Assembly: GCA_963799845.1 (NCBI GenBank)
Contig: CAWCYI010000004.1
Coordinates: 480,001 to 544,000, forward strand
Reading direction: 5' to 3'
DNA from: an uncultured Nitrososphaerota archaeon
GTDB lineage: Archaea; Thermoproteota; Nitrososphaeria; Nitrososphaerales; CADDZS01
DNA length: 64,000 nucleotides
The first letter of the stretch is position 1; each line of letters opens with the position of its first letter. This document shows, one piece after another, positions 12,332 to 32,280 of the stretch. The notes under the pieces were generated by a model. The model did not search any database, was not told where the DNA came from, and saw nothing but the letters and a program-made list of their open reading frames with translations. The translations under genes were made by a program, and so were the position numbers.

Positions 12332-12441
12332 ACTTACTGGTGGATTTCTAGTCAAAATCAAGTTCAATTTCCAACCTTTCAAACGATGTAAAATCATAAT
12401 AGCGCGCGCGCGCGTTTCGCCGTCAAGCCGCGCTCTTTGAT

Positions 12442-14787
12442 TTGGACGACCCTCAATCCTCCGCATCTCCCACTGGCGAGCAAGCAGCTGTTAGTCTAGT
12501 TCGCGAATTACACAAGATCGAACTTTCAAATTATCGAGTCGTCGGCGGAATTGTAAGATACGACGAGTCCGCGAGAAATATTCTCAAGGATACAAAGCAG
12601 CGGATAGTCACAAGTCTAACTTCACAGACTCGAGGCCGAGACAACTACCTCATCTGGGCACCACCGGGCAGCGGCAAAAGTTTCTTTGTTCAGGAGATAG
12701 CAAAATCTCTCGGCGATAAAATAGACTACACTGAACTGAACCTAGCGCAGCTGGATGAGCAGAAGTTCAGAAGCGAACTTTCTAAGATCGAGAAATCCAA
12801 TAAGCCCCGCTTGTGCTTCATGGACGAAGTAGACTCCAAATCGTCTGAAGCGTGGCCGTACGAAGCTCTCCTCCCATATCTTGAACCGCCTGATAGGAAC
12901 ACCATCAGGACATGCTTCATCCTTGCTGGCAGTAGTGGTAATTCCCTTTCGGAGATGAAGGAGAGGATTGCCAAACGTCCAAAGGGAGTTGATCTCTTGA
13001 GTCGAATACCGGCTCGCAATGAATCAGCTATTCCGGGATTAGCTTTGGGCGACAGGATCCTTGTCGCATCAACCCAATTCTTGCGAGCTTCAAGCGAAAA
13101 GGGACGGCAGACCGATGAAGTCGAAAAGCTGGTGCTCTACTATATCGCTCTTAATCCAAAATTGAACAGCGCACGTCAAATCCGAGACCTTGCAATTCAT
13201 TGTATCGAACGCATGCCCAGAGGCGAAGAAAGGATCAAGTTCGATTATCTTTTCGATGCCGGAGACTCTGAGAACAAGGAATTTTGGAACACTGCGGGGA
13301 CGCTGAGAAACGAATTTGTCAACACGTTTGTAAGATTAGAAGACGATCAAGCTGTTTTCAAAGGCTCAAGCCCACAGCAAGGGATTTCGAGATTTGATGA
13401 GAAACGTGTGTTCGAAACGCCCCTAGAGAAAAACCGTATCGCAGTTCTGCCGTTTGCCAACATCAGTCCAGATCCCAAAGACGAGTATTTTGCGGACGGG
13501 ATGACTGAGGAAATAATCTCAACGCTCTCAAAAATACGTGGACTGAAAGTCATCTCCCGTACTTCAGTCTTGAGGTACAAACAAACTAACAAGAGTCTCT
13601 CAGAAATCGCAAGAGAACTGAATGTTGGCGCTATACTGGAAGGGAGTGTCAGGAAGGCGGCAGATGAGTTGCGAATTACAGCGCAGTTGATCGACGTGGA
13701 TAATGACGAGCATCTGTGGTCTCAAGATTATGACAGAAAATTCGAGAATGTGTTTTCACTGCAGAAAGAGATCGCGCAAAAAGTCGCTGATTCTCTCCAG
13801 ATTACAATTCTATCCAAAGAGAGCAAGGAGTTAGGAAAGAAACCAACCCAGAATATGGAAGCATACAGTCTTTACTTGAAAGGTCGCTCTCACCGGCACC
13901 GATGGAATCTTGATTCTTTCAAAAGAACAATAGATTATTGTGAGCAGGCTATTCAAAAAGACCCAAATTACGCCCAAGCCTACGCTGAGATTGCCAATTG
14001 TTACTCCATCATTGGTGTCAGAGAACTGCTCCCATCGAATGAGGCTTTCGCAGGCCGAGAAGTTTGCTGAAAAGGCAATCCAATTGGATCCTTCCCTTCC
14101 GGAATCTTATCTCGCACGCGGTCTGGTTCTGCTTTTACACAAATGGGATTTCCGACGTGCGGAAATAGAAATCAGAGGATCTCTTGAATTTAATCCTAGC
14201 CTGGTTGATGGTCATTTATATCTCGCGCAGCTGCTGGTGTGGAGCAGAAGATTTGGCGAAGCCGTTTTGGAAAGCAAACGCGCTTTGGAACTGGATCCGA
14301 TGTCAGCATGGACATGCTCATGGGCAGGCGAGATGCTTCTGTTTTCTCACCAAATTGACGAAGCTATAGAATTGTCGAGAAATGCCATCGAACTAGATCC
14401 GAAGTCGGCTTTGGCGCGACACAATTTGGGCCTTGCTTATGTTATGAAAGGAATGATCGAGAAAGGAATTTCTGAACTCAAAAAGCTAGAAGCCACGCCT
14501 TTCTCGCCTACGCCTATGGCAAAGCTGGAAAGATCAATGAAGTGAAGAACATTCTCGCAGACCTGTTCAGGATGAGGGAAAAAGGCTACAGGTCAGAAGT
14601 AGCAATTGCTGCAGCCTACTTGGGTTTAGGTGAAAAGGACAAGTCCATAGAGTGGTTAGAGAGGGCTTACGAGCAGCACGTGGGTCATTTTCCTGATGTG
14701 AACGCTCAGCCCATTTTCGACGACCTTCGCTCTGATCCAAGGTTTCAGGCTCTGATGAAGAAGATTGGATTTCCAGACGCAGTCTGA
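12442..14787 (+). pseudogene. AAA+ ATPase - TolB_N-like - TPR protein, copy 1 (two frame breaks in TPR part)
   Basis: Walker A APPGSGKS, Walker B CFMDEVD, DLLSRI, SARQIR; RIAVLPF; TPRs over ORFs 12442-14070, 13940-14545, 14542-14787. Confidence 0.85.
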
Positions 14788-14901
14788 TACTAAATTGATT
14801 TTTCGAAAGGAATTTGCACAGAATTAGTTGGAATGCCAGATTATATCCTGGTCGTTCAATCCCAACATTGCCATCTTGCAATATATGAAATGGCTACTTT
14901 T

Positions 14902-15936
14902 TCAGCGAAAGTGTCGTGCGTGAACCCTCCGATCCTTCGTTCTTTCGCTGAATGTCTCGAAGCCGAGTTTGGCCGCCCCAAGCAGGCAAACGTCCGGATT
15001 CAGCACGAGGTAGACCGGGATGTCCGTCAGAAGTTCGCTCTGGCGCCCTTTCCTCGTTAGTGCCTCCACAAACTTCCCGTCCTCCAGCACGGGTCTGATT
15101 CGCGCGGGGATTCCCCCAGCAATGTAGACGCCGTTAGTCGCGAAGACTTTCAACGCGAGGTTGCTCGCTTCGGCTCCCATTATCGCCACAAACGTGTCGA
15201 GGGACTTTTCGCACAACTCGCAGCGCACTCCACCGAGCGCGGCCTTGACGATGATCGGGACCGGGTCGTCAGCCCCGGTTATCATTCTTGAAAGTTCAGC
15301 GTGTCGCTCTCGCGCGTCCACGATTTTGTGGTAGAATGTGTGAATCTCTTTTAGCCCGGGTCCCGAGCACACCCGTTCGTAACTAACGTGGTCAAGCTTT
15401 TGTTGCATGTACTTCAAAAGCTCAATTTGGACCGTGTCCCTAGGTGCGAAGTCGCAGTGCCCTCCCTCGGAGGCGAACGCGCGATACTTTTTTCCATCCC
15501 AGGTTAGGAAGGCTTCCCCGAGTCCCGTTCCCGGGGCAATCACCGCAATAGTCCCGCGTTGAACCGGCTTGCCCTCGTTGAGGACTAGATAGTCCACCTT
15601 CGGATTCAGAAAAGGTATAAACGAAGCCGTGGCGACCAAATCGTTGACCAGCAGCACGGAAGAAATTCCAAGGACGCGTCTGATCTGCCTTTCGCTTATC
15701 ACCCAGGGCAAATTGGTTATCGAAGATTTTCCCCCGATGACGGGGCCTGCAACGGCGAAGCACGCCTGGTCGATCGAGTACTTGTTTTTGGACAGGAACT
15801 CGAAAAGGAGAGATTCGATGTCTTCGAACTTTGGGCTGGAGAATGTCTTTTGCGCCAGTGGTTTGCGCAAGTTTCGCTTCGATGAAAAAACGGCGATGGA
15901 AGTCTTCGTTCCGCCCACGTCTCCCGCCAAGATCAT
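14902..15936 (-). CDS. glk: Glucokinase, bacterial Glk family
   Basis: AGDVGGT, AVAGPV, TNLPW, VND, APGTGLGEA, SEGGH, ERVCSGPG, AGGI. Confidence 0.93.
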   Translation of the reverse strand: MILAGDVGGTKTSIAVFSSKRNLRKPLAQKTFSSPKFEDIESLLFEFLSKNKYSIDQACFAVAGPVIGGKSSITNLPWVISERQIRRVLGISSVLLVNDLVATASFIPFLNPKVDYLVLNEGKPVQRGTIAVIAPGTGLGEAFLTWDGKKYRAFASEGGHCDFAPRDTVQIELLKYMQQKLDHVSYERVCSGPGLKEIHTFYHKIVDARERHAELSRMITGADDPVPIIVKAALGGVRCELCEKSLDTFVAIMGAEASNLALKVFATNGVYIAGGIPARIRPVLEDGKFVEALTRKGRQSELLTDIPVYLVLNPDVCLLGAAKLGFETFSERTKDRRVHARHFR

Positions 15937-16045
15937 TTTCGAGTAACCATCCCTTCGACTTTTTACGTTGGGTAGTTCCCAGTTTGCGGAAATAATTTTT
16001 CGACGCCTCTTAGGACTGATTTGTTTTCAGTCCTCAATGTTGAGG

Positions 16046-16834
16046 TCATACATCTGCCTGGCCGACGACTTGCCGCATCGATTCCACGTACTTGTAATGG
16101 TCCTTTCTTTTGAGCTTCTCCGCCGCCGCTTCGTCGAGGAATGCAGTGACCCTTGGATGGAGTTGGAGCGCGCTCGCGGTTATTTCCGAAGTAATGGGCC
16201 CTTCCAAAGCCAGCCTTACCGCATCCGACTTTTCCACGCCGCTAGCGAGGAGAACGATGTGGCGTGACTCGAGGATCGTCCCGACCCCCATCGTGATCGC
16301 AAATCGCGGCACCTCGTCGAGACTCCTGAAGAACCTCGCGTTGTCGGAAATCGTTTCTTGGGCTAGCGTCTTGAGCCTCGTTCTTGATCCGAGCGATGAA
16401 CCGGGCTCGTTGAATGCGATGTGCCCGTCGCGCCCGATGCCAAGCAGCTGGATGTCTATCCCGCCGGCTTCTCTTATGGAGGCTTCGTACTCGGAGCAGG
16501 ACGCCTCGATGTCCTTTACGAGTCCCCCTGGGATGTGCACGTTTTTGGGATCGATGTTCACATGCCTGAGCAGATTTTCGTCCATGAAGTAACGGTAGCT
16601 CTGGGGATGGTCCGGCGCGAGGCCGTAGTACTCATCTAGGTTGAAAGTGCGCACTCCTGCAAAGTCGAGGCCTTCTTCCCTATGCATTCGCGCGAGCTCG
16701 CGGTATATCCCCAGCGGTGTGCTGCCGGTAGCGAGGCCGAGGACGGAGTCGGGCTTCCGTCTTAATTGGGCTGCGATGAGCTTAGCCGCAGCGTTACTCA
16801 TTTCAAAGTAGCTCGGCGCGATCCGGACTCTCAA
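16046..16834 (-). CDS. nagB: Glucosamine-6-phosphate deaminase
   Basis: LGLATGSTP, FNLDEY, QSYRYFM, GIGRDGHIAFNEP, TMGVGTI, ASALQLH. Confidence 0.96.
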   Translation of the reverse strand: MRVRIAPSYFEMSNAAAKLIAAQLRRKPDSVLGLATGSTPLGIYRELARMHREEGLDFAGVRTFNLDEYYGLAPDHPQSYRYFMDENLLRHVNIDPKNVHIPGGLVKDIEASCSEYEASIREAGGIDIQLLGIGRDGHIAFNEPGSSLGSRTRLKTLAQETISDNARFFRSLDEVPRFAITMGVGTILESRHIVLLASGVEKSDAVRLALEGPITSEITASALQLHPRVTAFLDEAAAEKLKRKDHYKYVESMRQVVGQADV

Positions 16835-17001
16835 ATTCGATCTCTTAATCCAGTGTGTCGTGCGGATTAAACTTTATCCGACTACATTGGAAATCTACCG
16901 ATTCTCTTCTCCTCTCTATCCGTGCGTACCAATAAATAGACACGCACGCAGAGAAAAAAAATCAAAAAAAGATAGAAGGAGAGAGTAAAAACTCCTCCTA
17001 C

Positions 17002-17270
17002 CTAGAGCGCGAAGATCTTTGCTTGAATTTCATTCATGTCTGGCGCACCTTCAGCAGTGAGCTCAAATCTCCCCTTCTTACCATTCAGCCACGAAAGTCT
17101 TGGGGAGGTTGTCATGAAGGTAATTTCGCCCTCACCCTTGTTCGTAGTCGGGCCAGTCATCCTTCCAGTTCCATGACCGATTCCCAGGATTATATCTCCT
17201 TCGTTTGTTGAGTCCACGAACTTCGTCTCCCAATCATACGCACCGCTCGTCTTGAAATTGAATAGGGAGA
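17002..17270 (-). pseudogene. 5'-truncated beta-rich hypothetical protein
   Basis: Coding-like C-terminus (GEITFMTTSPRLSWLNGK); the upstream part of the ORF runs into a (CG)n tract and AT-rich sequence. Confidence 0.45.
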
Positions 17271-17571
17271 TTGTACGCGCGCGCGCTTTTGCCAGTGACA
17301 AATATTTAACGCAAGTGATTTTCAAGGTTTCTTTTTTCCCGAAAAGTGCGGAATTCAACTTCTGCTCTCTGAAGGATCAATTGTTAGTTTTGGTGGAATG
17401 GGAACGATGACGTTGAGTCCATAAGGCGGGGTTTGGACTCTGGTAACATTATAGTGTGTTGTACAGAGATGTTTTACTTCGAGTGTTGAGTGCTAAAGTT
17501 TTGCCTGTTGGTTCTAAATTACCCAATGATTCATGGAATCAACAATAGAAAACACGGCAGCTAATTCGATA

Positions 17572-17865
17572 TTAGTACCCTTGATCTCTTGGTTCTTTTT
17601 CTCCTTGCTTTCTTCTCACTTCTTCTTCATCCATCTTGGCGCCGAGCCAAGCAGAGCTGACATAAGAGCCTGTTTGCTTGGATGGAGATAATGGTTCTAG
17701 CTTATTTTCATCATCTTTCCTTGAATGAGGGAGAAAACCCAAAACAGCTAGACAGATTACGCCGCCAATGATATAGAAGATGCCGAGCGGCGAATATAAC
17801 ACGAAGCAAGCTATGACTGCAATAACGCCTATCGCAAGCTTGAGTAAGAATTTCGTTTCGCCCAC
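17572..17865 (-). CDS. Small membrane protein
   Basis: Two TM helices plus charged tail. Confidence 0.6.
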   Translation of the reverse strand: MGETKFLLKLAIGVIAVIACFVLYSPLGIFYIIGGVICLAVLGFLPHSRKDDENKLEPLSPSKQTGSYVSSAWLGAKMDEEEVRRKQGEKEPRDQGY

Positions 17866-17931
17866 CCGAATGATAAGATTGTAAGTCCCTCGTTTTACGC
17901 TTTGTCCATTTGAAGATGGTTCTCTCGTCTC

Positions 17932-18669
17932 TTATGCTATGGACTCGTTGATGTATCCATAGCTGAATCCACTGATTCCTATCAATTCTCCGACAGCACC
18001 GTAAACGTAACCACAACTGGCTTCGTAGACATTGGAATACGCGGAGATGATAATGTGTTGCGTATCTTGATTTACGATCAGAGCGGCGAATTGACACAGT
18101 CCAGAAACACTCAGGACATCATAACTCCCCGAATTGGGAGAGACATTGAAACTGTACTTCACGAAGAACTTTTCATCGGAATTGTTACCAAAATGAAGCT
18201 GGCTCGGTTGAGCAGTGATTGTGATGTTTGGAGCGCAGCAATCCCAACCAGACGGCAGTGTCTGGGTCAAGATCTCCGCACTAACATTAACATTGGACAC
18301 ACCAAGCGCGTCTGGCGATGGATTTTTAGTGTATTGAACGCAGAGGCTCGCCGTTGAACTGGAACTTGAATTTATCGCAAGAACTAACAGCCGAATAGTA
18401 GAGCTATTGGGATTATTATTCACAGATGTCCAATTCAGATTGGTTCCAAGGTTAGAATTGGATGAGCAATTTTCACTCGTGGGCGAATTCGTCAGAGTTA
18501 GTGATGTAGTGCCGACAGAACCCGTGTAGGACAAAGTTACTGTTAAACTAGAAAGGGAAGTTGTGTGGTTTGCAGTTGCCAAGTACCCCACACCAAAGGC
18601 GGCGACGATAATCAGAAGGAGAAGAACCACTACCTTCGTGGTTCGCCCGATTGCGTACAATTTCGACAT
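17932..18669 (-). CDS. Membrane-anchored Ser/Thr-rich, Cys-containing surface protein (paralog family A)
   Basis: N-terminal TM, S/T linker, SLCVQY..ITITAQPS..VKYSFNV..SGLC domain. Confidence 0.7.
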   Translation of the reverse strand: MSKLYAIGRTTKVVVLLLLIIVAAFGVGYLATANHTTSLSSLTVTLSYTGSVGTTSLTLTNSPTSENCSSNSNLGTNLNWTSVNNNPNSSTIRLLVLAINSSSSSTASLCVQYTKNPSPDALGVSNVNVSAEILTQTLPSGWDCCAPNITITAQPSQLHFGNNSDEKFFVKYSFNVSPNSGSYDVLSVSGLCQFAALIVNQDTQHIIISAYSNVYEASCGYVYGAVGELIGISGFSYGYINESIA

Positions 18670-18860
18670 TGTTACTTGATTCTCGTTTGCACTGAATATA
18701 TTACCTGATTACAATTGTCAATTTTGAGAATCGGACACATGGGTTCAAGTTCAGGAAATACTACGACAAGAGTTAACCCAACTAACAATTTGACATTGAC
18801 ATCGAGCCTGCTGAATCCTTAAGGATGGAATGAAGAATTGAATTTCAAGACCTTCCTGCC

Positions 18861-19874
18861 ATGAGTTCTATTGACCCATCTCCCTACATTTCTCTGGCAT
18901 TTCTCTTCGGCATCGCGGCACAATTTCGTGCAATGGACGGATATTCGTTCTTGCGGAGAGTGATTGCGATATTTGAAAGGAAGATTGGAATACTCTACAC
19001 TGTAGTGATTGTTACTTCGCTTTTCTCACCCTTCATCCTCAACGATGTAGTTGTCATTATCCTTACTCCCGTGATTATTAGATATGCCAAGCAATTCAAG
19101 GTCGATATTGCCCCGCTCTTGATTGCGGAAATTACATTCACAAACATTGCGAGTTCCCTGACTCCTCTTGGCAATCCACAAAACATTTTGCTGTGGAGCA
19201 CATCCAAGATAACTTTTCAACAATTTGTAATTGGGACGTGGTTGCCGCTTGCAATTTCAGGAATCTTAGCCACAATAATTCTTTTACCGTTCAGGAAACA
19301 GTTTGGTGATGCAAAGGAATTTCCGACAACCGCAGGCTCAAAAATTCCTGCAATCTATTTAGGAATCGTGATACTGTCAATTGTTCTGTCTGACCTTTTT
19401 GGACTAGCACCCTACATTTCCCTTGGAATCGGTTTCCTATTGGGATTCTTGTTTACGTCTCGCTCACTGAAACAAGTCGTCAGAGAATACGACCTAAAGA
19501 GCCTCCTTATCCTGTATGGGTTCGTTGGTTCAGTTACTCTCGTCTCGATTGTGATCGGGCCTGCCTTGAGTGGCTATGCATCACCTGTTGGTCAGGGCAC
19601 CCAACCATATTCTGCCCTGTTTATGGGAATCCTGTCGAATTTAGTTAGTAATGTTCCTGCAACACAACTAGTTCTGAGTGTTACTTCGATTTCACCACAC
19701 ATTGTACCTAAGATTGCGGTCGAGGCAGGACTCGCAGGCAACATAGACCCAATTGCATCTTTTGCAAATTTGCTAGTTCTGTTAATGGTAAGTCGAGCGG
19801 GTTTCTCGGTAAGAAAAACAATCATGTTACAATTTTTGATTGGCACTATTTCCTTTCTGCCTGCGTTTCTTTGA
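18861..19874 (+). CDS. ArsB/NhaD/SLC13-type ion transporter
   Basis: LNDVVV, NIASSLTPLGNPQNI, SNLVSNVPA, ASFANL. Confidence 0.85.
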   Translation: MSSIDPSPYISLAFLFGIAAQFRAMDGYSFLRRVIAIFERKIGILYTVVIVTSLFSPFILNDVVVIILTPVIIRYAKQFKVDIAPLLIAEITFTNIASSLTPLGNPQNILLWSTSKITFQQFVIGTWLPLAISGILATIILLPFRKQFGDAKEFPTTAGSKIPAIYLGIVILSIVLSDLFGLAPYISLGIGFLLGFLFTSRSLKQVVREYDLKSLLILYGFVGSVTLVSIVIGPALSGYASPVGQGTQPYSALFMGILSNLVSNVPATQLVLSVTSISPHIVPKIAVEAGLAGNIDPIASFANLLVLLMVSRAGFSVRKTIMLQFLIGTISFLPAFL

Positions 19875-20069
19875 GACTTTCATCGGATTTTCATTGAAGA
19901 GACAAGGACTATCGAAGAGGCATTTGATCGGCCAGAGACCCCTCGCATCTTCCAGATGCTCGGTGGTGCGCGCTGGCAAGACTAGGTGATTCGGCCTTGC
20001 AAGTTCGTCTACCGAGAGTGGTTTATTTAGAAGTTCATAAGTGAAGGCCTAGGTCTTCTCAAGTTCCTA

Positions 20070-20633
20070 ATGACGGATCCCCGAAAAATAATTCTGAGGA
20101 TGCTGTGTAAGACTTCGGATAATTTCACAGAAACAGAACTGGGACAGGTGCATTTTTGCGGGAGCTTTGCGAGTTGTATGAAAGCAGAAATCGAGTTTGC
20201 TTGTGTGCATGACATTGACATCCTTGTTGATGGGCCGAATATGGCAGCTAGATTTTGGGACTTCTTGGATAGTTTACTCGAACAAGGGTTGCGGTCTTTC
20301 AATAACAGCGAGCACCCAAAAAGCGTTAGAAATTGGAAAACTTGCAATGAGGGAAATTTTTTACACCCAACGTTGCTTACATTGAATTGTAGCCTAATTG
20401 GTCACAAAGAACAGCAACTTGACATCTTCATTGCGGATGCAGCGTTGGGTATTCCTTACTTGGAAAAATGGATGTGGGACGGAGGCAGAAAGGTGGAACC
20501 GTTTGCAACGAGTGAGCACAGAAGGAGCTTTTTGAAAAACCTTCCACTCAATCAAATTAGTTTCTCGACGGCGCTACGAAAGGTCAAAGACTTCTTAGAT
20601 TCGCAGAGAGAAGAATCATTGTGGATAAGGTAA
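20070..20633 (+). CDS. Pol-beta-fold nucleotidyltransferase (PolX palm-like)
   Basis: CGSF...HDIDILV and third acidic strand QLDIF. Confidence 0.6.
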   Translation: MTDPRKIILRMLCKTSDNFTETELGQVHFCGSFASCMKAEIEFACVHDIDILVDGPNMAARFWDFLDSLLEQGLRSFNNSEHPKSVRNWKTCNEGNFLHPTLLTLNCSLIGHKEQQLDIFIADAALGIPYLEKWMWDGGRKVEPFATSEHRRSFLKNLPLNQISFSTALRKVKDFLDSQREESLWIR

Positions 20634-20784
20634 CTAAGCAATTGTTCGATGAGATGTGGAGAGCTGGGTTTATTCCAGGCGGCTGATGAGACTTTAGCTG
20701 ATCTGTATCTGGACTTGCGCGTACCCGTAAAGCCCAGTTGCATTTGTGACGCCGATTTGCATTGTGTATTTTCCTTCGACTCAT

Positions 20785-21196
20785 TCAGCGGAAATTTTGA
20801 ACTTCGGTAGTTATCCATTCTTTCAAAGCTAAGGTCAGATTAATTTTGAAAGGCCGTTTACTGGTATCAAGTTGTATCGCTACCAGACCTGGCAAGATGG
20901 CTTTGAACGCAGAATCGTACAAGCTTGTGTCGTTATCCATTGGAATCATAAGAAGCCCAAAGTTTCTCGCAGCTCTGTTGATCCAATTTTGAGTTCTCCT
21001 ATCAACAAAAACTACCGATTTTCGACAGATGATTTGAAATGTCAAGCACGACAGTTTTGATTTCCGACCTGTCTTTCCCAGGCCGATCCAACAATTTGAT
21101 CAATTGTTTCGCCGAATCAGTTAGTAGGTTTTTTTCTTTCAAAACTATCTCTATTTGTCTCAGACGCATCTGATCCTGATCTGGCAGTTTGGACAT
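20785..21196 (-). pseudogene. Hypothetical protein, frameshifted near 21015
   Basis: ORFs 21002-21196 and 20785-21045 join by removing one base in an A or T run. Confidence 0.5.
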
Positions 21197-21253
21197 TCAC
21201 GTCATTCCTCTATCGCAAAGTCCATCTCGTCTCATTATGTAGTAGGAGTACTT

Positions 21254-21286
21254 ACTGTAACTACAGTTTTGTACTTCTGGTTACAG
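21254..21286. promoter_or_regulatory. Inverted repeats between divergent genes, candidate operator
   Basis: ACTGTA-AC-TACAGT (21254-21267) and CTGTAAC...GTTACAG (21255-21286). Confidence 0.4.
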
Positions 21287-21321
21287 CATCCATAATATGT
21301 CTCGATATATCCAATCTCGCA

Positions 21322-21555
21322 ATGCCCAGAATTCTCGTGAATAGAGAAACTTTCGAGAACAGCGCAGTTTTTCAAAGATTTTGCTGGTCTATTCGCGACT
21401 CGACGACACAAAGCATGTTGGAAGAATTAGCCATTGAGTTCATTAGACGAGAATCAGATAATCTGACAGGAGGTCAGTGCAAGGCCTTGGAAACTTGCTT
21501 TGTTCAAAGAACGCTTTTACCTGTGTCGAATGAAGCAGCACCTGCCCCTGTCTAG
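21322..21555 (+). CDS. Small hypothetical protein, possibly ribbon-helix-helix-like
   Basis: N-terminal beta strand (PRILVN) then two helices; TATA-like sequence upstream. Confidence 0.45.
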   Translation: MPRILVNRETFENSAVFQRFCWSIRDSTTQSMLEELAIEFIRRESDNLTGGQCKALETCFVQRTLLPVSNEAAPAPV

Positions 21556-21572
21556 TCGTAACTATCCGTAGC

Positions 21573-21866
21573 TTATTTCAGCTCTACGATGAGGGCTCTT
21601 CCAGTCGTTCCCATGCTTTCAACAGAATGAGATTCCGCATCGTACCAAGCTATCTCTCCCTTCTTCATACTCCGACTCTGAGCCTTACCGCCTGGCGGTG
21701 TAGACTTGTATTTTAGCGGGGTAATAGCATACGCGAAATATTTTGGATGGGAGTGCATATCGATTTTCAAGCCCTTCTTCCAGTTGAGTTCGATCACCCG
21801 AACGTTATCATTCTCTAGGAGTACTTTCGAATATTTGGACGCTGCTTTGTGAACATCTTGTGACAT
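21573..21866 (-). CDS. Cupin domain protein
   Basis: VLLENDNVRV, MHSHP, HSVE...LIVELK. Confidence 0.85.
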   Translation of the reverse strand: MSQDVHKAASKYSKVLLENDNVRVIELNWKKGLKIDMHSHPKYFAYAITPLKYKSTPPGGKAQSRSMKKGEIAWYDAESHSVESMGTTGRALIVELK

Positions 21867-21930
21867 GTGTTTGGGAATCAGGCTGGGGCGATATAAGCCC
21901 TATCATTGTTTCAAAACGCGTAGTTATGGC

Positions 21931-24306: not shown

Positions 24307-24486
24307 AGACGAATTTTATGCAATTTCCTGTAGATACTTTAAGGTGCTCAGTGCGAGGATAATACAAACATAGTCAGTCAGAAAGACCCCCAGAGTGAAA
24401 AGAAGAATTTCCGCTCAGTGCTTTACTTTCATGACACATTCTACAGTCTAAAAGCTTTTGAATTGAACCCATATGGTCAACAATGA

Positions 24487-24912
24487 ATGACCAGGGCTGA
24501 AGATGTAATCAATAGGGTTGTGGAGTTTGCAAACAAGCATGACCTCGATTCCTCGGTTGCATTATTTGACCCTGACGTCATCTGTTGGAATCCCATCAGT
24601 CAAGAGATCAAGGGGAGAGAAGCTCGTCGAAAAGTTATCGAAATAGCACTCAAGGCAATTCCCGATCTACAATGGCAAATTAAAACTGTATTAGTTCAAG
24701 GCGACTCGGCAGTTTTCGAAGCTTTGGAGTCAGGTACATTCACTGGCCTTCTTGAATTGCCAAATGGAAATATTCAGCCTACGAAAAAGTCGTATAGACT
24801 ACCATTCATCGCATTCTTGCGAATAAACAATGTTGGCCTAATCGTAGAGTATCGTAATTATTGGGATAATCTTTCCTTTATCCGTCAGCTTGGTATTGAG
24901 CTTAGAGCATAA
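24487..24912 (+). CDS. SnoaL-like/NTF2 ester cyclase
   Basis: FANKHDLD, GREA, AIPDL, GTFTG, YWDNLS. Confidence 0.85.
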   Translation: MTRAEDVINRVVEFANKHDLDSSVALFDPDVICWNPISQEIKGREARRKVIEIALKAIPDLQWQIKTVLVQGDSAVFEALESGTFTGLLELPNGNIQPTKKSYRLPFIAFLRINNVGLIVEYRNYWDNLSFIRQLGIELRA

Positions 24913-25095
24913 CGAACTTGAGGAAGCGGTCAGAGACCAAAAAAAAGTTAGATTCTAGAACGCTGGTCATCCATTGGGTCAGGAAAAATCCTGAGAAGAA
25001 AACTCTAGAGCAAAAACTCGATTCTGCGAGTATCCAAGCAAATACAACAATGAGAAGGACCAACCTGCTTTATCCTTTTTTCGAGAATTTGCTAA

Positions 25096-25861
25096 TTGCC
25101 TGGAAATAAGATCAAAACTGGTTGCACTGGTTGGAGTTACGAAGATTGGGTCGGTCCCTTCTATCCTCTCGGATCAAAACCAACTGAATACTTGCCCTTC
25201 TATTCTAGTGTCTTCGACATTGTCGAGATTGACACTACTTTCTACTCGAGTCCCAATGAGTGGCTGGTCAATCGCTGGATGGAGGTGACTCCCCCGAATT
25301 TTTCATTCACGGCCAAGATCCCGCAGACAATAACGCACGAAAGAAGATTCAGAGCCTACGACACGGAACTGTCAAACTTTCTCTCCGCTTTGCAACCACT
25401 GCGCCCCAAGTTGAAATGTATACTCGCTCAGATGCCTCCGTCTTTCAACTACAGAGATGATTTCGAAGCGCTAGCCGAATTTGTCAATGACGACAAGAAA
25501 ACGCGCGGAGATGTCAGGCTCGCAGTCGAGCTGAAGAAATACTTCGTTTTTCAGAGACGAGACGTTCGACCTTCTCTGGGAAAACGGGGTGTGCTTTGTG
25601 TGGTCTGCCAATCAGTACACGCGTGACTTTCTCGCCAGGGTCACGGCGGACTTTCTCTATGTGAGGTTCATTGGCGACAGACAGCTCACGAAATTCGATA
25701 GAATCCAGTTGAACAGAACAGTGTTACTCGAGGAATGCTGGAGGAGATTGAGCTCAGCACTTGACTCTGTGAATGAGGCTTTCGTATTTTCAAACAATCA
25801 TTTCGCGGGCTTTGCCCCTGACACCATAAGGGAGTTTAGGAAGATCGCGAATCTTGAGTAA
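25096..25861 (+). pseudogene. DUF72 family protein, frameshifted at 25533
   Basis: GCTGWSY.DW.G.FY, VEIDTTFY, KIPQTITH, QMPPSF, VEL|RN, YVRFIG, NNHFAG. Confidence 0.88.
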
Positions 25862-26015
25862 GTTAACCAGGCGGCTCGGTAATTTGAAACGGATATTCTT
25901 GCTCAGTTCTGTGGCGAGATGACAGCTGAAACTGATCCTTATGACGAGAATGATGAATCCTTTTTCTGTGCTGCCTTAGGAGATTCTAAAAAACCAAGAA
26001 GCTGGTTTTCTATTC

Positions 26016-28403
26016 TTAGCTATTTTTGAGCCCTATTCGCTTTAGTAACTTTTCGAATCGCTCGTCAGAGCGAATATTATCAAGCGGGAGACCTCCCCTA
26101 ACAATTATGTACATATACGTAGATCTTTCCGTGTATGCTCTTTCTAACCATTCGAACGCTTTGTCTTTATCACCGAGCCCAGAAAAAGCACATGCCCAGG
26201 TGAACGCGCTAACATGTGGATAGTTGTTGCTGTCCTGCAGTTCCTCGACAATCTTCCTTGCTTCGGTAACTCGGCCTGCTTTTGTTAGTGCATACGCAAG
26301 ATCTAATTGGTTATACGCGTCCTTCCCCTGGCTGAGTTCGATAGCCTTCTGAATTTCTACAATTCCTTCACTAAGCATTCCTTTTTGCACATACGTTAAT
26401 CCAAGATTATCATGTGCATTTGCGACAGCAGGATCTAGACTTATTGCTTTCTTGAATTGTTCTATTGCCTCGTCGTAATGGCCAGCATACATTAGCGCGC
26501 TCGCTGCCACAGTCAGAGTTACTGTTGACAAGGGATCCAATTCTAGAGACCTCTTGATCTCTGTAAATGCTTCGGGAAATTTACTTTCATCGCCGTGGTA
26601 GATCGTCCAGATTGCATGATAGACATATGCCCTAGCAAAACTCGGGTTCAGCTCAATAGACCGACGGAATTCATATTCAGCGCCGTCGAAATCCCAGTCA
26701 TAATTCAGATGTATCTGAGCCATCGACAGATGAGCGTCAGCCAGCATATTGTCGATTTCTAATGCTCTGGCAGCGAATTGCTTTGCTTTCAGTCCTGCTT
26801 CATCTCTCGTTATATAACTCCAGGCACCTAAGTACCAATAAGAGTCAGCGAGCCCGACAAAGGCCAAAGAGAAGAACGAATCTTGTTCTATAGCTAGTTG
26901 GAAGTATTCTATTGCAGTTTCAAATTCCTTTCCAGCAAGTTTGTTGAAATGGAACCTTCCTTTGAGATATAGAGTGTATGCTTCCTGGCTTTTTGTCGGG
27001 ATCTTTTCGAGGCTTTCTTCCTCTTTCGGCAAAAGTTTGACTTTCAGGGCTTTTGCAACGCTTGTTGAAATTTCGCTTTGGATTGCGAATACGTCCTGAA
27101 GCTCTCTGTCATAGGTTTCTGACCAAAGGTGTTCATCTGCCTTCGAATCTATCAATTGAACAGTGATTCTCAACCTGTTCCCAACTTTTCGAACACTTCC
27201 TTCAAGCAAATTCTCAGCCTGTAATTCCTGTCCAATCTCTGTAGTATTCTTGCTCGTTGCCTTATACCGCATAATCGAAGTTCTTGAAATTACTCTCAGT
27301 CCATGTATCTTCGATATTGAAGAGATCAGCTCCTCCGTCATTCCGTCTGCGAAGTACTCATCTTTAGGATCAGGGCTGATGTTTGCGAACGGTAGAACTG
27401 CGATGCGGTTTTTTCCATAGGTGGTTTCTTTGCTCGTGCGGTTTTCTTCGATTCTAGATGTTTCCCGTTTCGCACTTGAGCCACTGAGCACGACTTGATC
27501 GTCTTCCAACCTTACAAACGAGTTCACAAATTCGTTTCTTAGCGATCCCGCTCTAACCCAAAATTCCTTGTTCTCAGGATTACCAGCATCAAAGAGATAA
27601 TCGAATTTGATTCGCTCTTCGCCTGCGGGCATCCTTTCAATACAACGGACAGCGAGCTGACGAATCTGACGTGCGCTCTTTAGTTTGGGATTTAGTGCCA
27701 CGTAATATAGCACAAGTTTTTCGACTTCATCGATCTGACGGCCATACTCCCTTGCTGCGCTCAAGAATTGAGTTGAAACGACTAGAAGTCTATCACCCAG
27801 ACCAAGACCTTCTATCACGAATTCGTTGTCTGGTGGGATCCTACTCAGGAGGTCTATTCCCTTAGGGCGCTTCGCAATATTGTCTTTCATGCCATCAAGA
27901 GAATTTCCAGAGCTACCTGCGAGAATGAAGCAAGTGCGTACTGTTCTTCGGTTGATGGGTGGCTCAAGCGAAGGAAGGAGAGCTTCGTACGGCCATGATT
28001 CCGTTGGTTTCGAATCCACTTCGTCGATGAAGCACAGACGAGGTTTATCCAGTCTGTCTATTTCGAGTACCTCTCTTCGGAAATCTTGTTCGCTCATTTG
28101 AGCCAAGTTAAGCTCCCGATAGAGAATATGATCGCCCATCGACCTCGCAATTTCTTGGATGAAAAATGACTTCCCGCTTCCAGGTGGTGCCCAAATCAGG
28201 TAATTATCACATCCAAAAGGTTGCGAGCTGAGGCTCGAAACGATTCTTTGTTTCGTATCTTTCATCGAATTTCTCGCGGGCTCGTCGTACCTTACAATTC
28301 CACCGACAACTCGGAATCTAGAAAGATCTAAAGTATCGAGTCCTCTGATTAAGGAAATGGCGTTTTGTTCCTCAGAATCGTAATGAGAACCTGAGGAGTT
28401 CAT
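26016..28403 (-). CDS. AAA+ ATPase - TolB_N-like - TPR protein, copy 2 (intact, 795 aa)
   Basis: APPGSGKS, CFIDEVD, DLLSRI, SARQIRQL; RIAVLPFANISPDPKDEYFADG; multiple TPRs. Confidence 0.9.
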   Translation of the reverse strand: MNSSGSHYDSEEQNAISLIRGLDTLDLSRFRVVGGIVRYDEPARNSMKDTKQRIVSSLSSQPFGCDNYLIWAPPGSGKSFFIQEIARSMGDHILYRELNLAQMSEQDFRREVLEIDRLDKPRLCFIDEVDSKPTESWPYEALLPSLEPPINRRTVRTCFILAGSSGNSLDGMKDNIAKRPKGIDLLSRIPPDNEFVIEGLGLGDRLLVVSTQFLSAAREYGRQIDEVEKLVLYYVALNPKLKSARQIRQLAVRCIERMPAGEERIKFDYLFDAGNPENKEFWVRAGSLRNEFVNSFVRLEDDQVVLSGSSAKRETSRIEENRTSKETTYGKNRIAVLPFANISPDPKDEYFADGMTEELISSISKIHGLRVISRTSIMRYKATSKNTTEIGQELQAENLLEGSVRKVGNRLRITVQLIDSKADEHLWSETYDRELQDVFAIQSEISTSVAKALKVKLLPKEEESLEKIPTKSQEAYTLYLKGRFHFNKLAGKEFETAIEYFQLAIEQDSFFSLAFVGLADSYWYLGAWSYITRDEAGLKAKQFAARALEIDNMLADAHLSMAQIHLNYDWDFDGAEYEFRRSIELNPSFARAYVYHAIWTIYHGDESKFPEAFTEIKRSLELDPLSTVTLTVAASALMYAGHYDEAIEQFKKAISLDPAVANAHDNLGLTYVQKGMLSEGIVEIQKAIELSQGKDAYNQLDLAYALTKAGRVTEARKIVEELQDSNNYPHVSAFTWACAFSGLGDKDKAFEWLERAYTERSTYMYIIVRGGLPLDNIRSDERFEKLLKRIGLKNS

Positions 28404-28476
28404 TTCGACAATAGTCCTGAAATAATTTGATTAATATGGCTTAATTTGCATCATTACCCAGCCTTTTCCGATCTTA

Positions 28477-29712
28477 TCATGAATGCTGAGTTTTCGAGTC
28501 TTCTGATTTAGTAGGGAGACCTAGTTTCACCGCTCGATTCGGTGCTAAGAAGAAGAGTATTGGAAGCAGAACAATCGCGGTCACGCCAGTCAATGTAAAT
28601 GCAAAAGTGTATCCTTGCGTCACCGAAACAATTCCAAATAATATTGTAAAGCCGCTGGTAAAGACCAGTTGAACCGAATTTATGACCCCGATTCCTAGTG
28701 TTACTGATTCACTCTTGCTTTCTTCGAGATACGCGGGTATCATGAACATAACTGAACTTGCGACTCCGTAAAGGAATCCAGCTATTGCGTATAATCCCCA
28801 CAAGAATAATACCTCCAGATGCGGTAGAAGGAGGTAGCACAATCCGATGAGAAACGTGAACAACGCCAGGATCGTCCTTCTATCGTAGCCTCTCTCACCG
28901 ACCCAACCTCCAATTATGCCGCCAGGTATGGTGAAGAAGAGGCCTAATCCTAGGATTTCAGCTGCCGTGTCGATGCCCCAGAGTGGATGGACTTGACTAA
29001 AGTATTGGGCGAGGAAATCGGAGCCGATGTATCCACCCGCTGCGAAACCAGCAAGACCAAGAGAGATAGCCCATATCGATTTCGAGCCAAGGACCCGACG
29101 AGCCTGCGACCAAACAACTGATGACAAATCGTGTTGTTCGTTAACTTTGTTGGCGGGAAGAATTACTAGACTCAGGATGGTTGTCACAAGAATTATTCCC
29201 CCGCTAAGTTGAAACGGCGCACCCCAACCATATGCCAGACCTAGAACTGCGCCAGCTAAAAGGCCTACGATTCCGCCAGCGCCGTTTGTGATCCCGAAAA
29301 AAATTCCGATCAGTTTCCCCTTTTGTCCCTCGGAGTAGTACGAGGAGAGCAGACTGTAAGCCGAGCCACTGGACAAGGCTGCGCCCGCTCCCGTTACAAA
29401 CCGCAGAAGAGCGAGTTCTAGAATGTTGATAGAGTATCCAGATAGGAGAGTGGTTGCTCCCATTAAACCGAGTCCAACTAGATAGATCTCTTTGGTTCCC
29501 CACTTTATAGCTCCGAATCCAGATGGAATCTGGAATATCCCAAATCCCCCTAGAAAAGCTCCCAACATGAGCCCAAGCTGAGAAGTATTCACTTTGTACG
29601 CCTCACCGATCAACGGAACTATAGGGGCGATCTCGACGGAAACAAACGTGACTAAAGCTCCGCCGAGTATGAGGACTGCCGCGGACAATGCGCGACGATT
29701 GGAGAGAGTCAA
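28477..29712 (-). CDS. MFS transporter
   Basis: 12 TM, LRFVTGAG, GGWVGERG motifs. Confidence 0.88.
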   Translation of the reverse strand: MTLSNRRALSAAVLILGGALVTFVSVEIAPIVPLIGEAYKVNTSQLGLMLGAFLGGFGIFQIPSGFGAIKWGTKEIYLVGLGLMGATTLLSGYSINILELALLRFVTGAGAALSSGSAYSLLSSYYSEGQKGKLIGIFFGITNGAGGIVGLLAGAVLGLAYGWGAPFQLSGGIILVTTILSLVILPANKVNEQHDLSSVVWSQARRVLGSKSIWAISLGLAGFAAGGYIGSDFLAQYFSQVHPLWGIDTAAEILGLGLFFTIPGGIIGGWVGERGYDRRTILALFTFLIGLCYLLLPHLEVLFLWGLYAIAGFLYGVASSVMFMIPAYLEESKSESVTLGIGVINSVQLVFTSGFTILFGIVSVTQGYTFAFTLTGVTAIVLLPILFFLAPNRAVKLGLPTKSEDSKTQHS

Positions 29713-29763
29713 TACAACCCATCAAGAGCTAAAATATTCAATGACGGCCTTTTTCACAACTAA

Positions 29764-32146
29764 TCATTCTGCATCGGGAAAACCAATTTTCTTCAGCAAT
29801 GCCTGAAACCTTGGATCTGACCGAAAGTCCTCGAAAGCAGGATCGCTATTGATACTCGGAAGAGAGCTAAGATGATACTCATAAGCTCTCTCCAGCCACT
29901 CCATTGCCTTGTCCTTTTCACCTAAGCTCACGTAAACTCCAGCAATAGCTGCTTCTGACCTGTAGCCTTGTTCCTTCATTCTCAGCAAATCGGCAAGAAT
30001 GTTCTTCGCTTCATCGATTTTTCCAGCTTTTGCGTACGCCCAAGCAAGATTGCTTATTTTTGTCACATCTTCCCACCAGACATTTCTATGCCTATTTTGA
30101 TTTCAGAAATTCCTTCCTCAATCATTCCCTTCATGATGTATGCACAGCCCAGAACGTCATGCGCTAAAGCAGAATTCGGGTCTAGCTCGATAGCATTTCT
30201 GAACAAAACTATTGCTTCGTCAATTCGGCGAGATTGCAAAAGATAGCCACCTGCCATTGTGCACGTCCAAGCTGACAGCGGATCTCAGCTCCAAAGCGCG
30301 GTGGCATTCCAAAATGGCTTCGTCAAATCTCCTGCTAAACACGAGAACCTCTGCGAGATCGATGTGACCATCCACCGAGCTGGGATTAAGTTCGAGCGCT
30401 CGTCTCAATTCGATTTCAGCAGCTCGAAGATCCCATTTTTCTGCAAGTAAGAGCCATCCTAGCGCAAGGTGAGATTCAGGAAGGGACGGATCCAATTGGG
30501 TTGCTTTATCAGCAAACATCTTCGCTTGTGGCAGGGCTTCATTCGATGGCAGAAATTCAAACCAACTAAAGGCAGTGTAACATTTGGCCATCACCGAATA
30601 GGCTTGAGCGTAGTTCGGATCTTTCTGAATTGCTTGTTCGCAGTAAAATATCGTTCTTTTGAGGGAATCAAAAGTCAGTCGATGCATGTAAGATCGGCCC
30701 TTCAAGTATAGAGTATAAGCTTCCAGGTTCAGCGTTGGTCTCTTTCCTAATTCTTTGCTCTGCTTCGCGAGAATTGTAATCTGAAGAGAATCAGCGACCT
30801 TTTGGGCGATCTCCGCTTGCAGTGAAAACACGTTCTCGCATTTTCTATTATAATCTTGAGACCACAAATGCTCGTCGTTTTCCACATCAATTAGTTGCGC
30901 CGTAATTCGCAGATCGTCGCCTGCTTTCCTGACACTTCCTTCCAATACCGCCCCAACATTCAGTTCCTTGGCGATTTCGGAGAGATGCTTGTTCGTTTGC
31001 TTATAGCCCAAAACAGAAGTACGGGAGATGACTCTTAGCCCTCGAATTTTAGATAACGTAGAAATTAGTTCCTCGGTCATGCCATCCGCAAAGTACTCGT
31101 CCTTAGGATCAGGGCTGATATTTGCGAAGGGCAGCACGGCGATACGATTTTTTCCGTAGGTTGTTTCTTTGGTTGCAAGCTTTTCGTCAATTCTAGAATT
31201 CTCCAGATTCATAGTTGAGGGTCTGAAAACGATTTGATCATCCTCTAATCTTACAAACGTGTTGACAAACTCGTTTCTCAATTGACCTGTTCTGGTCCAA
31301 AACTCCTTGTTTTCGAGATCGCCCGCATCGAAAAGATAATCGAACTTTATTCTCTCTTCTCCCTTGGGCATGCGCTCGATACATCGAACAGCTCAGCTGT
31401 CGAATTTGACGGGCACTTTTCAGTCGGGGATTCGAAGCTACGTAGTAAAGCACCAATTTTTCGACTTCATCGATACGCCGTTCATGCTCAACTGCTGCAT
31501 TGAGAAATTGGGTGGAGACTACGAGAAGTCGATCCCCCAGTCCTAAACCCTCAATCACGAACTCGTTCCCTGGTGGAATCCTACTCAGAAGATCAGTACC
31601 TTTAGGGCGTTTTGTAATATTTTCATTCATACCTGCTAGAGAATTTCCAGAACTTCCTGCCAGAACGAAGCATGTTCGGACAGTTTTTCTATTTGCAGGT
31701 GGCTCAAGTGAAGGTAGAAGGGCCTCATACGGCCATGATTCACCTGGTTTGGAGTCCACTTCATCAATGAAGCACAGACGAGGTTTATCCAATTTTTCTA
31801 TTTCAAATAAAGCTCTGCGGAAATCTTGCTCACTCATCTGAGCCAAATTAAGCTCCCTGTAGAGAATATGGTCGCCCATAGACCTCGCAATTTCTTGGAT
31901 GAAAAATGACTTCCCGCTTCCAGGTGGTGCCCAAATCAGATAATTGTCGCATCCGAAGGGCTGCGAACTTAGACTGGAAACAATCCTTTGTTTTGTATCT
32001 TTCATAGAATTTCTGGCGGGCTCGTCGTACCGTACGATTCCTCCGACAACTCGAAACTTTGGAAGTTCAATGCTGTGGAGCTCGCGTACGAGACGAATAG
32101 CGTCTTGTTCGGAAGAAAGAGATGCAGAGGATTTCGATTCTTCCAA
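29764..32146 (-). pseudogene. AAA+ ATPase - TolB_N-like - TPR protein, copy 3 (three 1-nt frameshifts)
   Basis: Four consecutive ORFs colinear with copy 2; breaks near 31394, 30286 and 30070. Confidence 0.87.
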
Positions 32147-32280
32147 TCCAATGAACGCGACTTGATCCCGAAAACTAAGCTGGGAACTATTATGATTTTG
32201 CTTACACTAGATAGGGCAATCTAGATCGTCTGAAATTTTCAGCGCTTGAGTTGTGAACTCTAGCAGGTCTTCGGACTCGA

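Follow-up and report, generated by a model that had tools for sequence, protein, structure and literature searches.

Three AAA+ loci share their body with class III cyclases

The window analysed here, a stretch of 64,000 nucleotides, covers positions 480001 to 544000 of contig C4 in the genome of an uncultured Nitrososphaerota archaeon (hereafter G000; 4.6 Mb in 9 contigs, 86.7% complete). The nearest named relatives of this genome are Thaumarchaeota/Nitrososphaerales metagenome-assembled genomes (MAGs). The window carries three loci, copies 1 to 3, that encode proteins of one common architecture: an AAA+ head of about 300 residues is followed by a TolB_N-like domain and then by tetratricopeptide (TPR) repeats. 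Two class III cyclase genes of the same window encode a related body behind a different head. The features, numbered from the first letter of the window, are the following:

12442..14787, + strand: copy 1, with the architecture of copy 2 and two frame breaks (at about 14047 and about 14490)
26016..28403, − strand: copy 2, one intact open reading frame (ORF) of 795 residues with the AAA+ module, the TolB_N-like domain and TPR repeats, matched in Pfam by AAA and TPR families
27489..28376, − strand: AAA+ module of copy 2 (residues ~10–305)
26994..27413, − strand: TolB_N-like domain of copy 2 (residues ~331–470), beginning at the RIAVLPF motif
26019..26993, − strand: TPR region of copy 2 (residues ~471–795), with a terminal 'TPR end-of-group' domain
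29764..32146, − strand: copy 3, with the architecture of copy 2 and frame breaks at about 31390, about 30286 and about 30075
6038..7936, − strand: class III cyclase–TolB_N-like–TPR protein (PF00211 at 74 bits), 34% identical to residues 333–789 of copy 2
50908..52884, + strand: class III cyclase–TolB_N-like–TPR protein (PF00211 at 81.3 bits), 35% identical to residues 332–792 of copy 2

The original prediction, made from the letters of the window alone, had placed the three loci correctly, and the architecture that it read from them is seen in all three. Its description of three paralogs stands for copy 2, which is intact, but the frames of copies 1 and 3 are interrupted in the window. The proposed fusion to the module found behind both window cyclases is borne out by the identities listed above, the C-terminal ~460 residues of the cyclases being the part that can be aligned with the body of copy 2. 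Inspection of the copy 2 sequence by eye showed neither a signal peptide nor a membrane segment; the protein is apparently cytoplasmic.

The head is an AAA+ domain with a predicted complete ATPase site

All three copies contain the motifs APPGSGKS, hhhhDE (as CFIDEVD or CFMDEVD), DLLSRI and SARQIR that were named in the original prediction. In copy 2, Walker A is represented by G77 and K78, Walker B by D127 and E128, the sensor-1 position by S164 and the sensor-2 position by R245. These residues and R188 form a catalytic set that is invariant across the 57 sequences of a module-only family alignment (A2); the full invariant set comprises, in addition, N67, W71, P74, D130, G163, G182, D184, P190, E228, Q246 and F271. 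Two further elements are nearly invariant in A2. The first, W137-P-Y-E, lies right behind Walker B at the pore-loop-2 position, and the second is a C-terminal motif (R264/Y267/D268/L270/G274/D275/K279/W282) in which the pattern R264...D268...F271...W282 is specific to the family. The position of pore loop 1 reads E-L-N-L-A in the same alignment and has no aromatic-hydrophobic-Gly motif.

The assignment to AAA+ rather than to the STAND NTPases, likewise part of the original prediction, is supported by Pfam, by profile matches to the PDB and by the modelled structure. Pfam PF00004 (AAA) matches copies 1 to 3 with 24.0, 37.1 and 29.4 bits, above its cut-off of 21.2, and no STAND family of Pfam matches any of the three. 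A phmmer search against the sequences of the PDB finds Cdc48, VAT and p97, but only over residues 67–132; the best matches of the A2 profile are VAT, Cdc48, p97 and Vps4 (E 8.7e-11 to 4e-06), in alignments that stop at Walker B. An AlphaFold2 model of the head, built from a 60-sequence alignment, reaches a predicted local distance difference test score (pLDDT) of 93.2 and a predicted template-modelling score (pTM) of 0.88. It consists of a five-stranded P-loop core, a helical lid (helices 202–257), an N-terminal helix with a hairpin, and a C-terminal mini-domain; behind the lid, short helices and one strand are seen by eye, not a winged helix. R188, the candidate arginine finger, is placed after helix 182–187 and before strand 194–196 of the model.

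A Foldseek search of the PDB with the model of the copy 2 head returned 964 matches at E<=0.001. The best 50 are all AAA+ ATPases, ring-forming types with an alpha-helical lid included, at template-modelling (TM) scores of 0.38–0.53, and no STAND protein is among them. These 50 include spastin, MgsA, Vps4, RuvB, Lon, NtrC1, NtrX, Orc1/Cdc6, clamp loader, p97 and ClpX, with no single AAA+ clade prominent. The head is thus a genuine AAA+ domain with a predicted complete ATPase site, and the conservation of the catalytic residues in 57 members argues, at the level of sequence, against an inactive domain. It is also a separate AAA+ lineage, with an N-terminal half that resembles classical AAA proteins and a remainder of its own. 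Pfam and NCBIfam hold no model specific for it. A search of copy 2 against PADLOC-DB v2 gave nothing meaningful (best match MkoA, E 0.0037, 13.6 bits, over 45 residues around the P-loop), and the ESM Atlas matches of the module fall into 'hypothetical protein' clusters only.

The body is TolB_N-like by fold

Residues 321–480 of copy 2 were modelled by AlphaFold2 with a pLDDT of 91.1. Foldseek aligns this model to TolB N-terminal domains in the PDB (TM 0.59–0.63, E about 1e-7 to 1e-6), so the TolB_N label of the original prediction is right by modelled fold. GNA1162, PelC, LpoB, FlgT and the periplasmic domain of CadC (TM 0.56–0.60) are matched as well. Pfam detects only FlgO in this region, below threshold, in copies 1 and 3 (19.9 and 20.8 bits; cut-off 22.6). 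The region behind it matches TPR_11, TPR_2, TPR_8 and TPR_1 in copy 2, and residues 737–788 match the NCBIfam 'TPR end-of-group' model NF047558 with 54.5 bits (cut-off 32). Other NCBIfam matches to the body are partial and far below their cut-offs: HilA/EilA (E 4.7e-12), CadC (E 2.6e-06) and the cyclase family TIGR04510 (E 2.6e-16).

Heads have been exchanged on the body within the genome

TolB_N and/or TPR matches to copy 2 were found by tblastn at 29 places in G000. The class III cyclase domain has 24 matches in the genome, mostly beside such TolB_N-TPR bodies, and the AAA module occurs at seven loci (10 match segments). Outside the window, the module lies at the following places of contig C4 (contig numbering):

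C4:1996102-1998609: uninterrupted AAA-headed paralogue, ORF of 835 residues
C4:1246423-1248747: uninterrupted AAA-headed paralogue, ORF of 774 residues
C4:1242656: internally deleted fragment
C4:1993642: frame-split copy

A maximum-likelihood tree (LG+G4, quick search) was computed from the 25 of the 29 bodies that cover at least 330 body residues. The seven AAA-headed bodies make up two clusters inside the cyclase-headed part of the tree, an arrangement that requires at least two head changes; none of 500 shuffles of the head labels required as few. About twenty G000 paralogues with a cyclase head have the body of the window proteins. A third type of head precedes a body at C6:968172-970297 (L079), where a KaiC-like ATPase (PF06745, 81 bits) lies adjacent in a different frame.

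Nucleotide identities are mosaic. Copies 2 and 3 are 69–89% identical in the head and 51–58% in the body, from about nucleotide 1200 onwards, whereas copy 2 and the paralogue at C4:1996228 are 65–90% identical in the head and 88–96% in the body; heads and bodies differ in their nucleotide-identity history. At the protein level, five of the six other AAA-headed loci are 74–85% identical to copy 2 in the AAA module, 54–66% in the TolB_N-like domain and 37–42% in the TPR region, the TPR region of copy 3 having been pooled under the row of copy 2 in this comparison. The nearest AAA-headed paralogue is 84% identical to copy 2 in the AAA module and 93% in both the TolB_N-like domain and the TPR region. 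The nested bodies, the head changes and the mosaic identities all agree with the earlier description of a cyclase chassis on which the head has been replaced, and the figures for the five loci fit its picture of a conserved engine with variable TPR sensors.

The module recurs at protein termini across phyla

A phmmer search of 1.84 billion representative proteins found 463 matches at E<=0.001, 355 at E<=1e-10 and 213 at E<=1e-30, the 463 being representative clusters at 50% identity. The matches span query residues ~10–301 and end at a hydrophobic-V-x-hydrophobic-E-D motif, and these boundaries recur in 265 relatives. The module, about 290 residues long, is terminal in 113 of the best 150 representatives, being C-terminal in 80 and N-terminal in 33. 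In the others it is nearly alone (16), internal (3) or present only in part (18). The ~290-residue head is therefore a discrete mobile module that different phyla reuse at the ends of proteins.

Clustering sorted the 126 partner regions of 80 residues or more into classes. The largest is a region of ~900 residues with an nSTAND-like P-loop (28 of 126), followed by TolB_N-TPR in either order (23), STAND with TPR- or HEAT-type regions (11), alpha/beta hydrolases (5), three further classes of 4 each and KaiC (3); the rest are pairs and singletons. Fusion architectures were read from Pfam matches on 15 chosen representatives, that of P0027 from a precomputed Pfam list. They include AAA-NACHT-FGE-sulfatase (P0123), AAA-STAND-TPR (P0134, P0154), AAA-STAND-HEAT (P0027), KaiC-AAA (P0153), methyltransferase-AAA (P0236), hydrolase-AAA (P0053) and cyclase-NB-ARC-TPR-AAA with the module at the extreme C-terminus (P0186). 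The replacement of a cyclase output holds on the chassis of G000; in the family at large, the module has many contexts besides the cyclase chassis and is often C-terminal, and P0186 has both domains.

A word index of 5.8 billion proteins yielded 391 matches. Their source names are 'TolB-like protein', 'tetratricopeptide repeat protein', 'alpha/beta fold hydrolase' and 'pimeloyl-ACP methyl ester carboxylesterase', with single occurrences of 'adenylate cyclase' and 'ABC-type ... ATPase component'. Among species-representative genomes at least 76 loci were found. L062–L076 match just ~60–100 residues around the P-loop and were excluded; 61 loci have real module matches, and all 61 are in MAGs. 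They belong to Chloroflexota (23), Thermoplasmata/Thermoplasmatota (13), Actinomycetota (9), Thaumarchaeota/Nitrososphaerales (3), 'Delta proteobacterium' (3), other Euryarchaeota (2) and Acidobacteriota (2), with one locus each in Bathyarchaeota, Dormiibacterota, Gemmatimonadetes, Atribacteria, Planctomycetota and an unclassified genome. The named genome records among the matches listed are all uncultured MAGs, and the stated habitats are soil, sediment, peat or groundwater. Full-length matches are 36–52% identical to the module of the window; between archaeal members and those of Chloroflexota, Actinomycetota or deltaproteobacteria the identity is 45–52%. In the order of the window's genome, 5 of the 121 genomes searched carry the module, G000 counted. 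A congener (G063) has 9 matches, among them open frames of 789–843, 1292 and 1371 residues.

The hydrolase-AAA protein of Dehalococcoidia is 581–583 residues long; the best 120 of 4041 matches are all this protein, 71–100% identical over the hydrolase part. Among the matches listed from viral contigs there is no full module, only two short P-loop matches.

A candidate MerB-like fusion hidden by in-frame TGA codons

One class of the family consists of modules annotated with 358 residues, at eight loci in Chloroflexota and Actinomycetota MAGs (L010, L017, L024, L025, L027, L031, L038 and L040). A separate 'upstream ORF' was considered for this class and rejected: the stretch belongs to the AAA gene itself and continues into the module in frame across two TGA codons. 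These are conserved in seven of the eight loci, 66 codons apart (for example L017:7278-8852); in L025, the eighth, a frame shift follows the first TGA. When TGA is read as selenocysteine in L017, the Pfam family MerB (alkylmercury lyase) matches with 65.4 bits (E 6.2e-18) across both TGA positions, which we take to be those of the catalytic cysteines of MerB. A conserved hairpin follows each TGA; the second has a 7-bp stem and a 4-base loop, with 6 of 7 pairs identical in all 7 sequences. The region thus looks like a candidate two-selenocysteine MerB-like domain fused to the AAA module, and it is cut down by gene callers to a 358-residue 'hypothetical' protein.

Most frame breaks in the window are assembly errors

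With copy 2 as tblastn query, copy 1 falls into three frame segments (12478–14046, 14051–14485 and 14503–14781). Between the shifts, the correct-frame sequence of copies 1 and 3 is well conserved and free of stops. The stretch 30066–30320 of copy 3 had been considered as 'mangled' DNA, which was rejected because it is merely in another frame.

Window positions 12400–32200 were compared with short-read contigs from four soil-metagenome runs of one study (X1–X4), of which X1 is the best source and contains 0.77 of the sampled words of this DNA. No RNA run was listed among the runs with this DNA. Relative to the window, contigs of X1 and X2 have an extra A behind 14479 in copy 1, and X1 contigs are one base shorter at 30286 and at 31394 in copy 3. 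The short-read contigs thus contradict three of the five breaks, which are therefore errors of the window's assembly. X2 and X3 contigs are also one base shorter at 25533, inside an unrelated ORF. The break at ~14047 in copy 1 is present likewise in X1 record 1 and X2 record 10, and that at ~30075 in copy 3 in X4 record 31, at a depth of only 2.9; both are probably real. X1 may be the sample behind the window's assembly, so that its support for a break is only partly independent. Once the three indels are introduced, copy 3 becomes a frame of 711 residues with a shifted tail of 112 residues, and copy 1 becomes 555 plus 284 residues, counted from stop to stop.

The leucyl-tRNA synthetase gene (C6:270773-273698) lies in three frames in the same assembly. 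Given this split gene and the assembly indels, frame breaks in G000 need read support before the label 'pseudogene' is applied. One X2 contig equals the window up to 14051, exactly at the remaining break of copy 1, and continues with 255 letters of different sequence; this may be an alternative paralogue junction in the population.

Other genes of the window

Another frame problem may exist at 11531-12331 (+), where only residues 130–251 of a 266-residue ORF match a known family (the ketopantoate reductase C-terminal domain, PF08546) and the N-terminal ~100 residues look unrelated. At 21931-24306 (−), a UvrD/REP-type helicase of 791 residues has a large insert in the N-domain of the helicase (AAA_19 at residues 150–572, UvrD-helicase at 393–587) and an N-terminal stretch that is hydrophobic by eye. 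The PADLOC models that match it best are those of GajB and one of a DRT helicase (E 1e-53 to 1e-55); no search was made for a GajA-like or reverse-transcriptase partner. At 17932-18669 (−) and 32908-33783 (−) lie two proteins rich in Ser, Thr and Asn, each with a hydrophobic N-terminal segment; Pfam matches neither, and they are possibly secreted or exposed at the surface.

A proposed sensor-controlled ATPase output and the alternatives to it

We propose that the module is a sensor-controlled, assembly-dependent AAA+ ATPase output domain on a cytoplasmic one-component protein, encoded by copy 2 and by the other copies wherever these are intact, and we give this proposal about an even chance of being right. 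The TolB_N-like and TPR part would be the input, and the N-terminal ~300 residues, a catalytically competent AAA+ ATPase, would be the output. The invariant R188 would complete the active site of the neighbouring subunit. The TolB_N-TPR body would control self-association, with the head active only once assembled, and ATP hydrolysis by the assembled module would be the output, acting on some target or partner. Active sites of AAA+ proteins are completed by an arginine of the adjacent subunit, and hydrolysis should therefore depend on self-assembly. The active sites of the AAA+, class III cyclase and KaiC families all sit at subunit interfaces; since the three kinds of head are interchangeable, control of self-association by the body is suggested by analogy. 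We infer that the module acts as output rather than as regulator, that it depends on assembly and that it is under ligand control; a role in remodelling or in conflict, as suggested in the original prediction, is conjectural. A complex prediction with three copies of residues 8–303 and three ATP scored 0.00 against a mark of 0.42, in a run without controls, and speaks neither for nor against assembly.

This proposal is supported by the AAA+ identity and conserved catalytic set of the head, by the sensor-like fold of the body with its CadC match, by the exchange of heads on one chassis, by partners that are sensor bodies or enzyme folds binding small molecules, by the terminal position of the module in P0186 and in fusions with NACHT or nSTAND domains and FGE-sulfatase, TPR or HEAT regions (P0123, P0134, P0154, P0027), by its strong conservation between archaeal and bacterial members and its far better conservation than that of its partners within G000, and by the intact copies of G063, with open frames of 789–843 residues. 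Several observations weigh against it. The second region of homology is unmatched, similarity to solved AAA proteins ending at Walker B, and the N-L-A at pore loop 1 argues against a processive protein unfoldase. The joint presence of a cyclase and the module in P0186 indicates that the two are not strict alternatives or simple equivalents. Only three of the seven G000 loci are uninterrupted in the assembly (795, 835 and 774 residues). An all-against-all BLAST of the flanking ORFs of the 61 loci found no neighbour common to different architecture classes. In the fusions with alpha/beta hydrolases, the MerB-like domain and methyltransferases, moreover, the AAA module could equally regulate the enzyme.

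In one rival explanation, a conflict or immunity system, the module would be the effector of NLR-like and TPR sensors of invaders, and the assembled ATPase would disable the cell or the invader, for example by target unfolding or ATP drain. We consider this possible but doubtful. It would account for the effector position of the module in NACHT, nSTAND and NB-ARC proteins with FGE-sulfatase, TPR or HEAT sensor ends, for its patchy occurrence (5 of 121 genomes of the order) and for its lineage-specific expansion (seven loci in G000, nine matches in G063). A TPR region that is hypervariable beside a conserved head, recombination between paralogues, the identity of members from different domains of life, high enough to suggest horizontal transfer, and the two probably real frame breaks together with the internally deleted copy at C4:1242656 point the same way. 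PADLOC, however, has no meaningful match for copy 2, the neighbours in the window are metabolic or transport genes (glucokinase and a major facilitator superfamily transporter), and the viral contigs listed lack a full module. The strong conservation of the hydrolase-AAA protein in Dehalococcoidia looks like housekeeping rather than an arms race, and relatives with a cyclase head are commonly seen as signalling proteins. An unlikely alternative, in our view, is a chaperone or remodeller with a built-in adaptor, comparable to EccA or to Vps4 and spastin (MIT + AAA), in which the partner region binds a client and a constitutive AAA ring remodels it with no ligand sensing. The P-loop half is indeed nearest to VAT, Cdc48, p97 and Vps4 (E 1e-10 to 4e-06), spastin and Vps4 are among the top Foldseek matches, TPRs are peptide-binding modules, and W137-P-Y-E is nearly invariant at the position of pore loop 2. 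Yet pore loop 1 has no aromatic residue, and the alpha/beta hydrolase, MerB-like, methyltransferase and KaiC partners are not client-binding adaptors. The TolB_N-TPR body is common to cyclases, where it must regulate, and the NCBIfam EccA model, which has a cut-off of 466 bits, scores 16.7 and aligns to the TPR region alone.

Decay of the window copies to pseudogenes without present function in this organism is very improbable. Copies 1 and 3 are frame-broken, two of the breaks are common to the short-read contigs, and a deleted fragment (C4:1242656) and a frame-split copy (C4:1993642) exist elsewhere on the contig. Against decay stand the uninterrupted frames of copy 2 and two paralogues, the origin of three of the five window breaks in assembly errors, the leucyl-tRNA synthetase gene split by the same assembly, the intact catalytic residues, and the conserved in-frame coding sequence that the broken copies keep apart from single-base shifts.

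As regards the target of a sensor-controlled output ATPase, the W-P-Y-E loop and the C-terminal motif are candidate contacts, and the unmatched second region of homology and the missing aromatic at pore loop 1 argue against a standard protein-threading unfoldase. A wider generalisation is offered only tentatively. The module may represent a novel type of ATPase output or effector domain that is switched on by assembly, is interchangeable with cyclase, KaiC-like and DNA-binding heads, and is placed by archaea and bacteria on TPR sensors, on STAND sensors of the NLR-like kind and on enzyme folds that bind small molecules. ATP hydrolysis, through remodelling of a target or ATP drain, would then be a general read-out of one-component sensing in the cytoplasm and of NLR-like sensing.

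If the proposal is true, a sensor family of 463 clusters uses an ATPase ring as its output, and one-component and NLR-like signalling would have an output type besides second messengers and transcription. The module would also give an experimental handle on what the common, poorly understood TolB_N-TPR sensor bodies respond to, the more so as one body carries three different heads (AAA+, cyclase and KaiC-like) within one genome.

Comparison with known systems

Public annotations name members of the family only 'TPR repeat protein', 'TolB-like protein' or 'alpha/beta hydrolase'. In the parts of the literature that the search covered, including parts of PMC7159879 and of PMC13581612, no description of this AAA module was found; the supplementary tables of STAND effector domains of PMC13581612 lie outside these parts and might bear on novelty. 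Within this scope, and with no specific Pfam or NCBIfam family for the module, the earlier view of an undescribed architecture is upheld.

The closest relatives by body are the class III cyclase–TolB_N-like–TPR proteins (TIGR04510-type 'peptide modification system cyclase'), which are presumably those of the rhizobial CyaD/CyaK type. Their bodies are 34–35% identical to that of copy 2 in the window cyclases and up to 48% identical over the whole body in other paralogues, and they are phylogenetically interleaved with the AAA-headed ones. The head differs, being a cyclase there and an AAA+ ATPase here, with no PF00211 match on copies 1 to 3, and the output of the AAA-headed proteins therefore cannot be a cyclic nucleotide.

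ToxR-like regulators of the CadC/HilA type have a sensor portion to which the body is homologous by fold, a TolB_N-like alpha/beta domain being followed by helical repeats there too. Their head is an OmpR-type DNA-binding domain and CadC is membrane-anchored, whereas the proteins described here have an ATPase head and are apparently cytoplasmic. Enhancer-binding proteins of the NtrC type follow a like logic, in which a sensor controls the assembly of an AAA+ ring, and NtrC1 and NtrX are among the Foldseek matches. These proteins, however, have the sigma-54 interaction domain PF00158, a GAFTGA motif and a helix-turn-helix domain; Pfam finds no PF00158 in copies 1 to 3, and no GAFTGA motif or DNA-binding domain was seen in them by eye. 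To our knowledge, archaea have no sigma-54, yet archaea are among the hosts of the module.

With the classical AAA proteins (VAT, Cdc48/p97, Vps4 and spastin), the module shares the alignable stretch from Walker A to Walker B, the alpha-helical lid and the PF00004 match. Classical members have a second region of homology with two arginines and an aromatic pore loop 1; the module has one candidate finger in D-L-L-S-R-I-P, no aromatic at that loop and a single AAA domain. It differs further by an N-terminal element of ~60 residues and a C-terminal element of ~45 residues of its own (R-x-K-Y-D-x-L-F-x-x-G-D-P-E-N-K-x-F-W). EccA of type VII secretion combines TPR repeats and one AAA domain in one cytoplasmic protein, as is the case here, but in the opposite domain order and with an AAA domain of another, CbbX-like lineage, and the match of its NCBIfam model is confined to the TPR part.

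The STAND and NLR-like NTPases (Avs, bNACHT and MalT/LAL) carry an effector or helix-turn-helix output at a terminus, the very position that the module holds in several members of its family, although the module itself is not STAND and the window proteins have no STAND domain. By the features tested, the module is a member of the AAA+ superfamily that belongs to none of the classical clade, the STAND NTPases, the enhancer-binding proteins and EccA. The AAA+ superfamily and the TolB_N-TPR body are known; what appears to be new is an AAA+ family that is used as a modular terminal domain.

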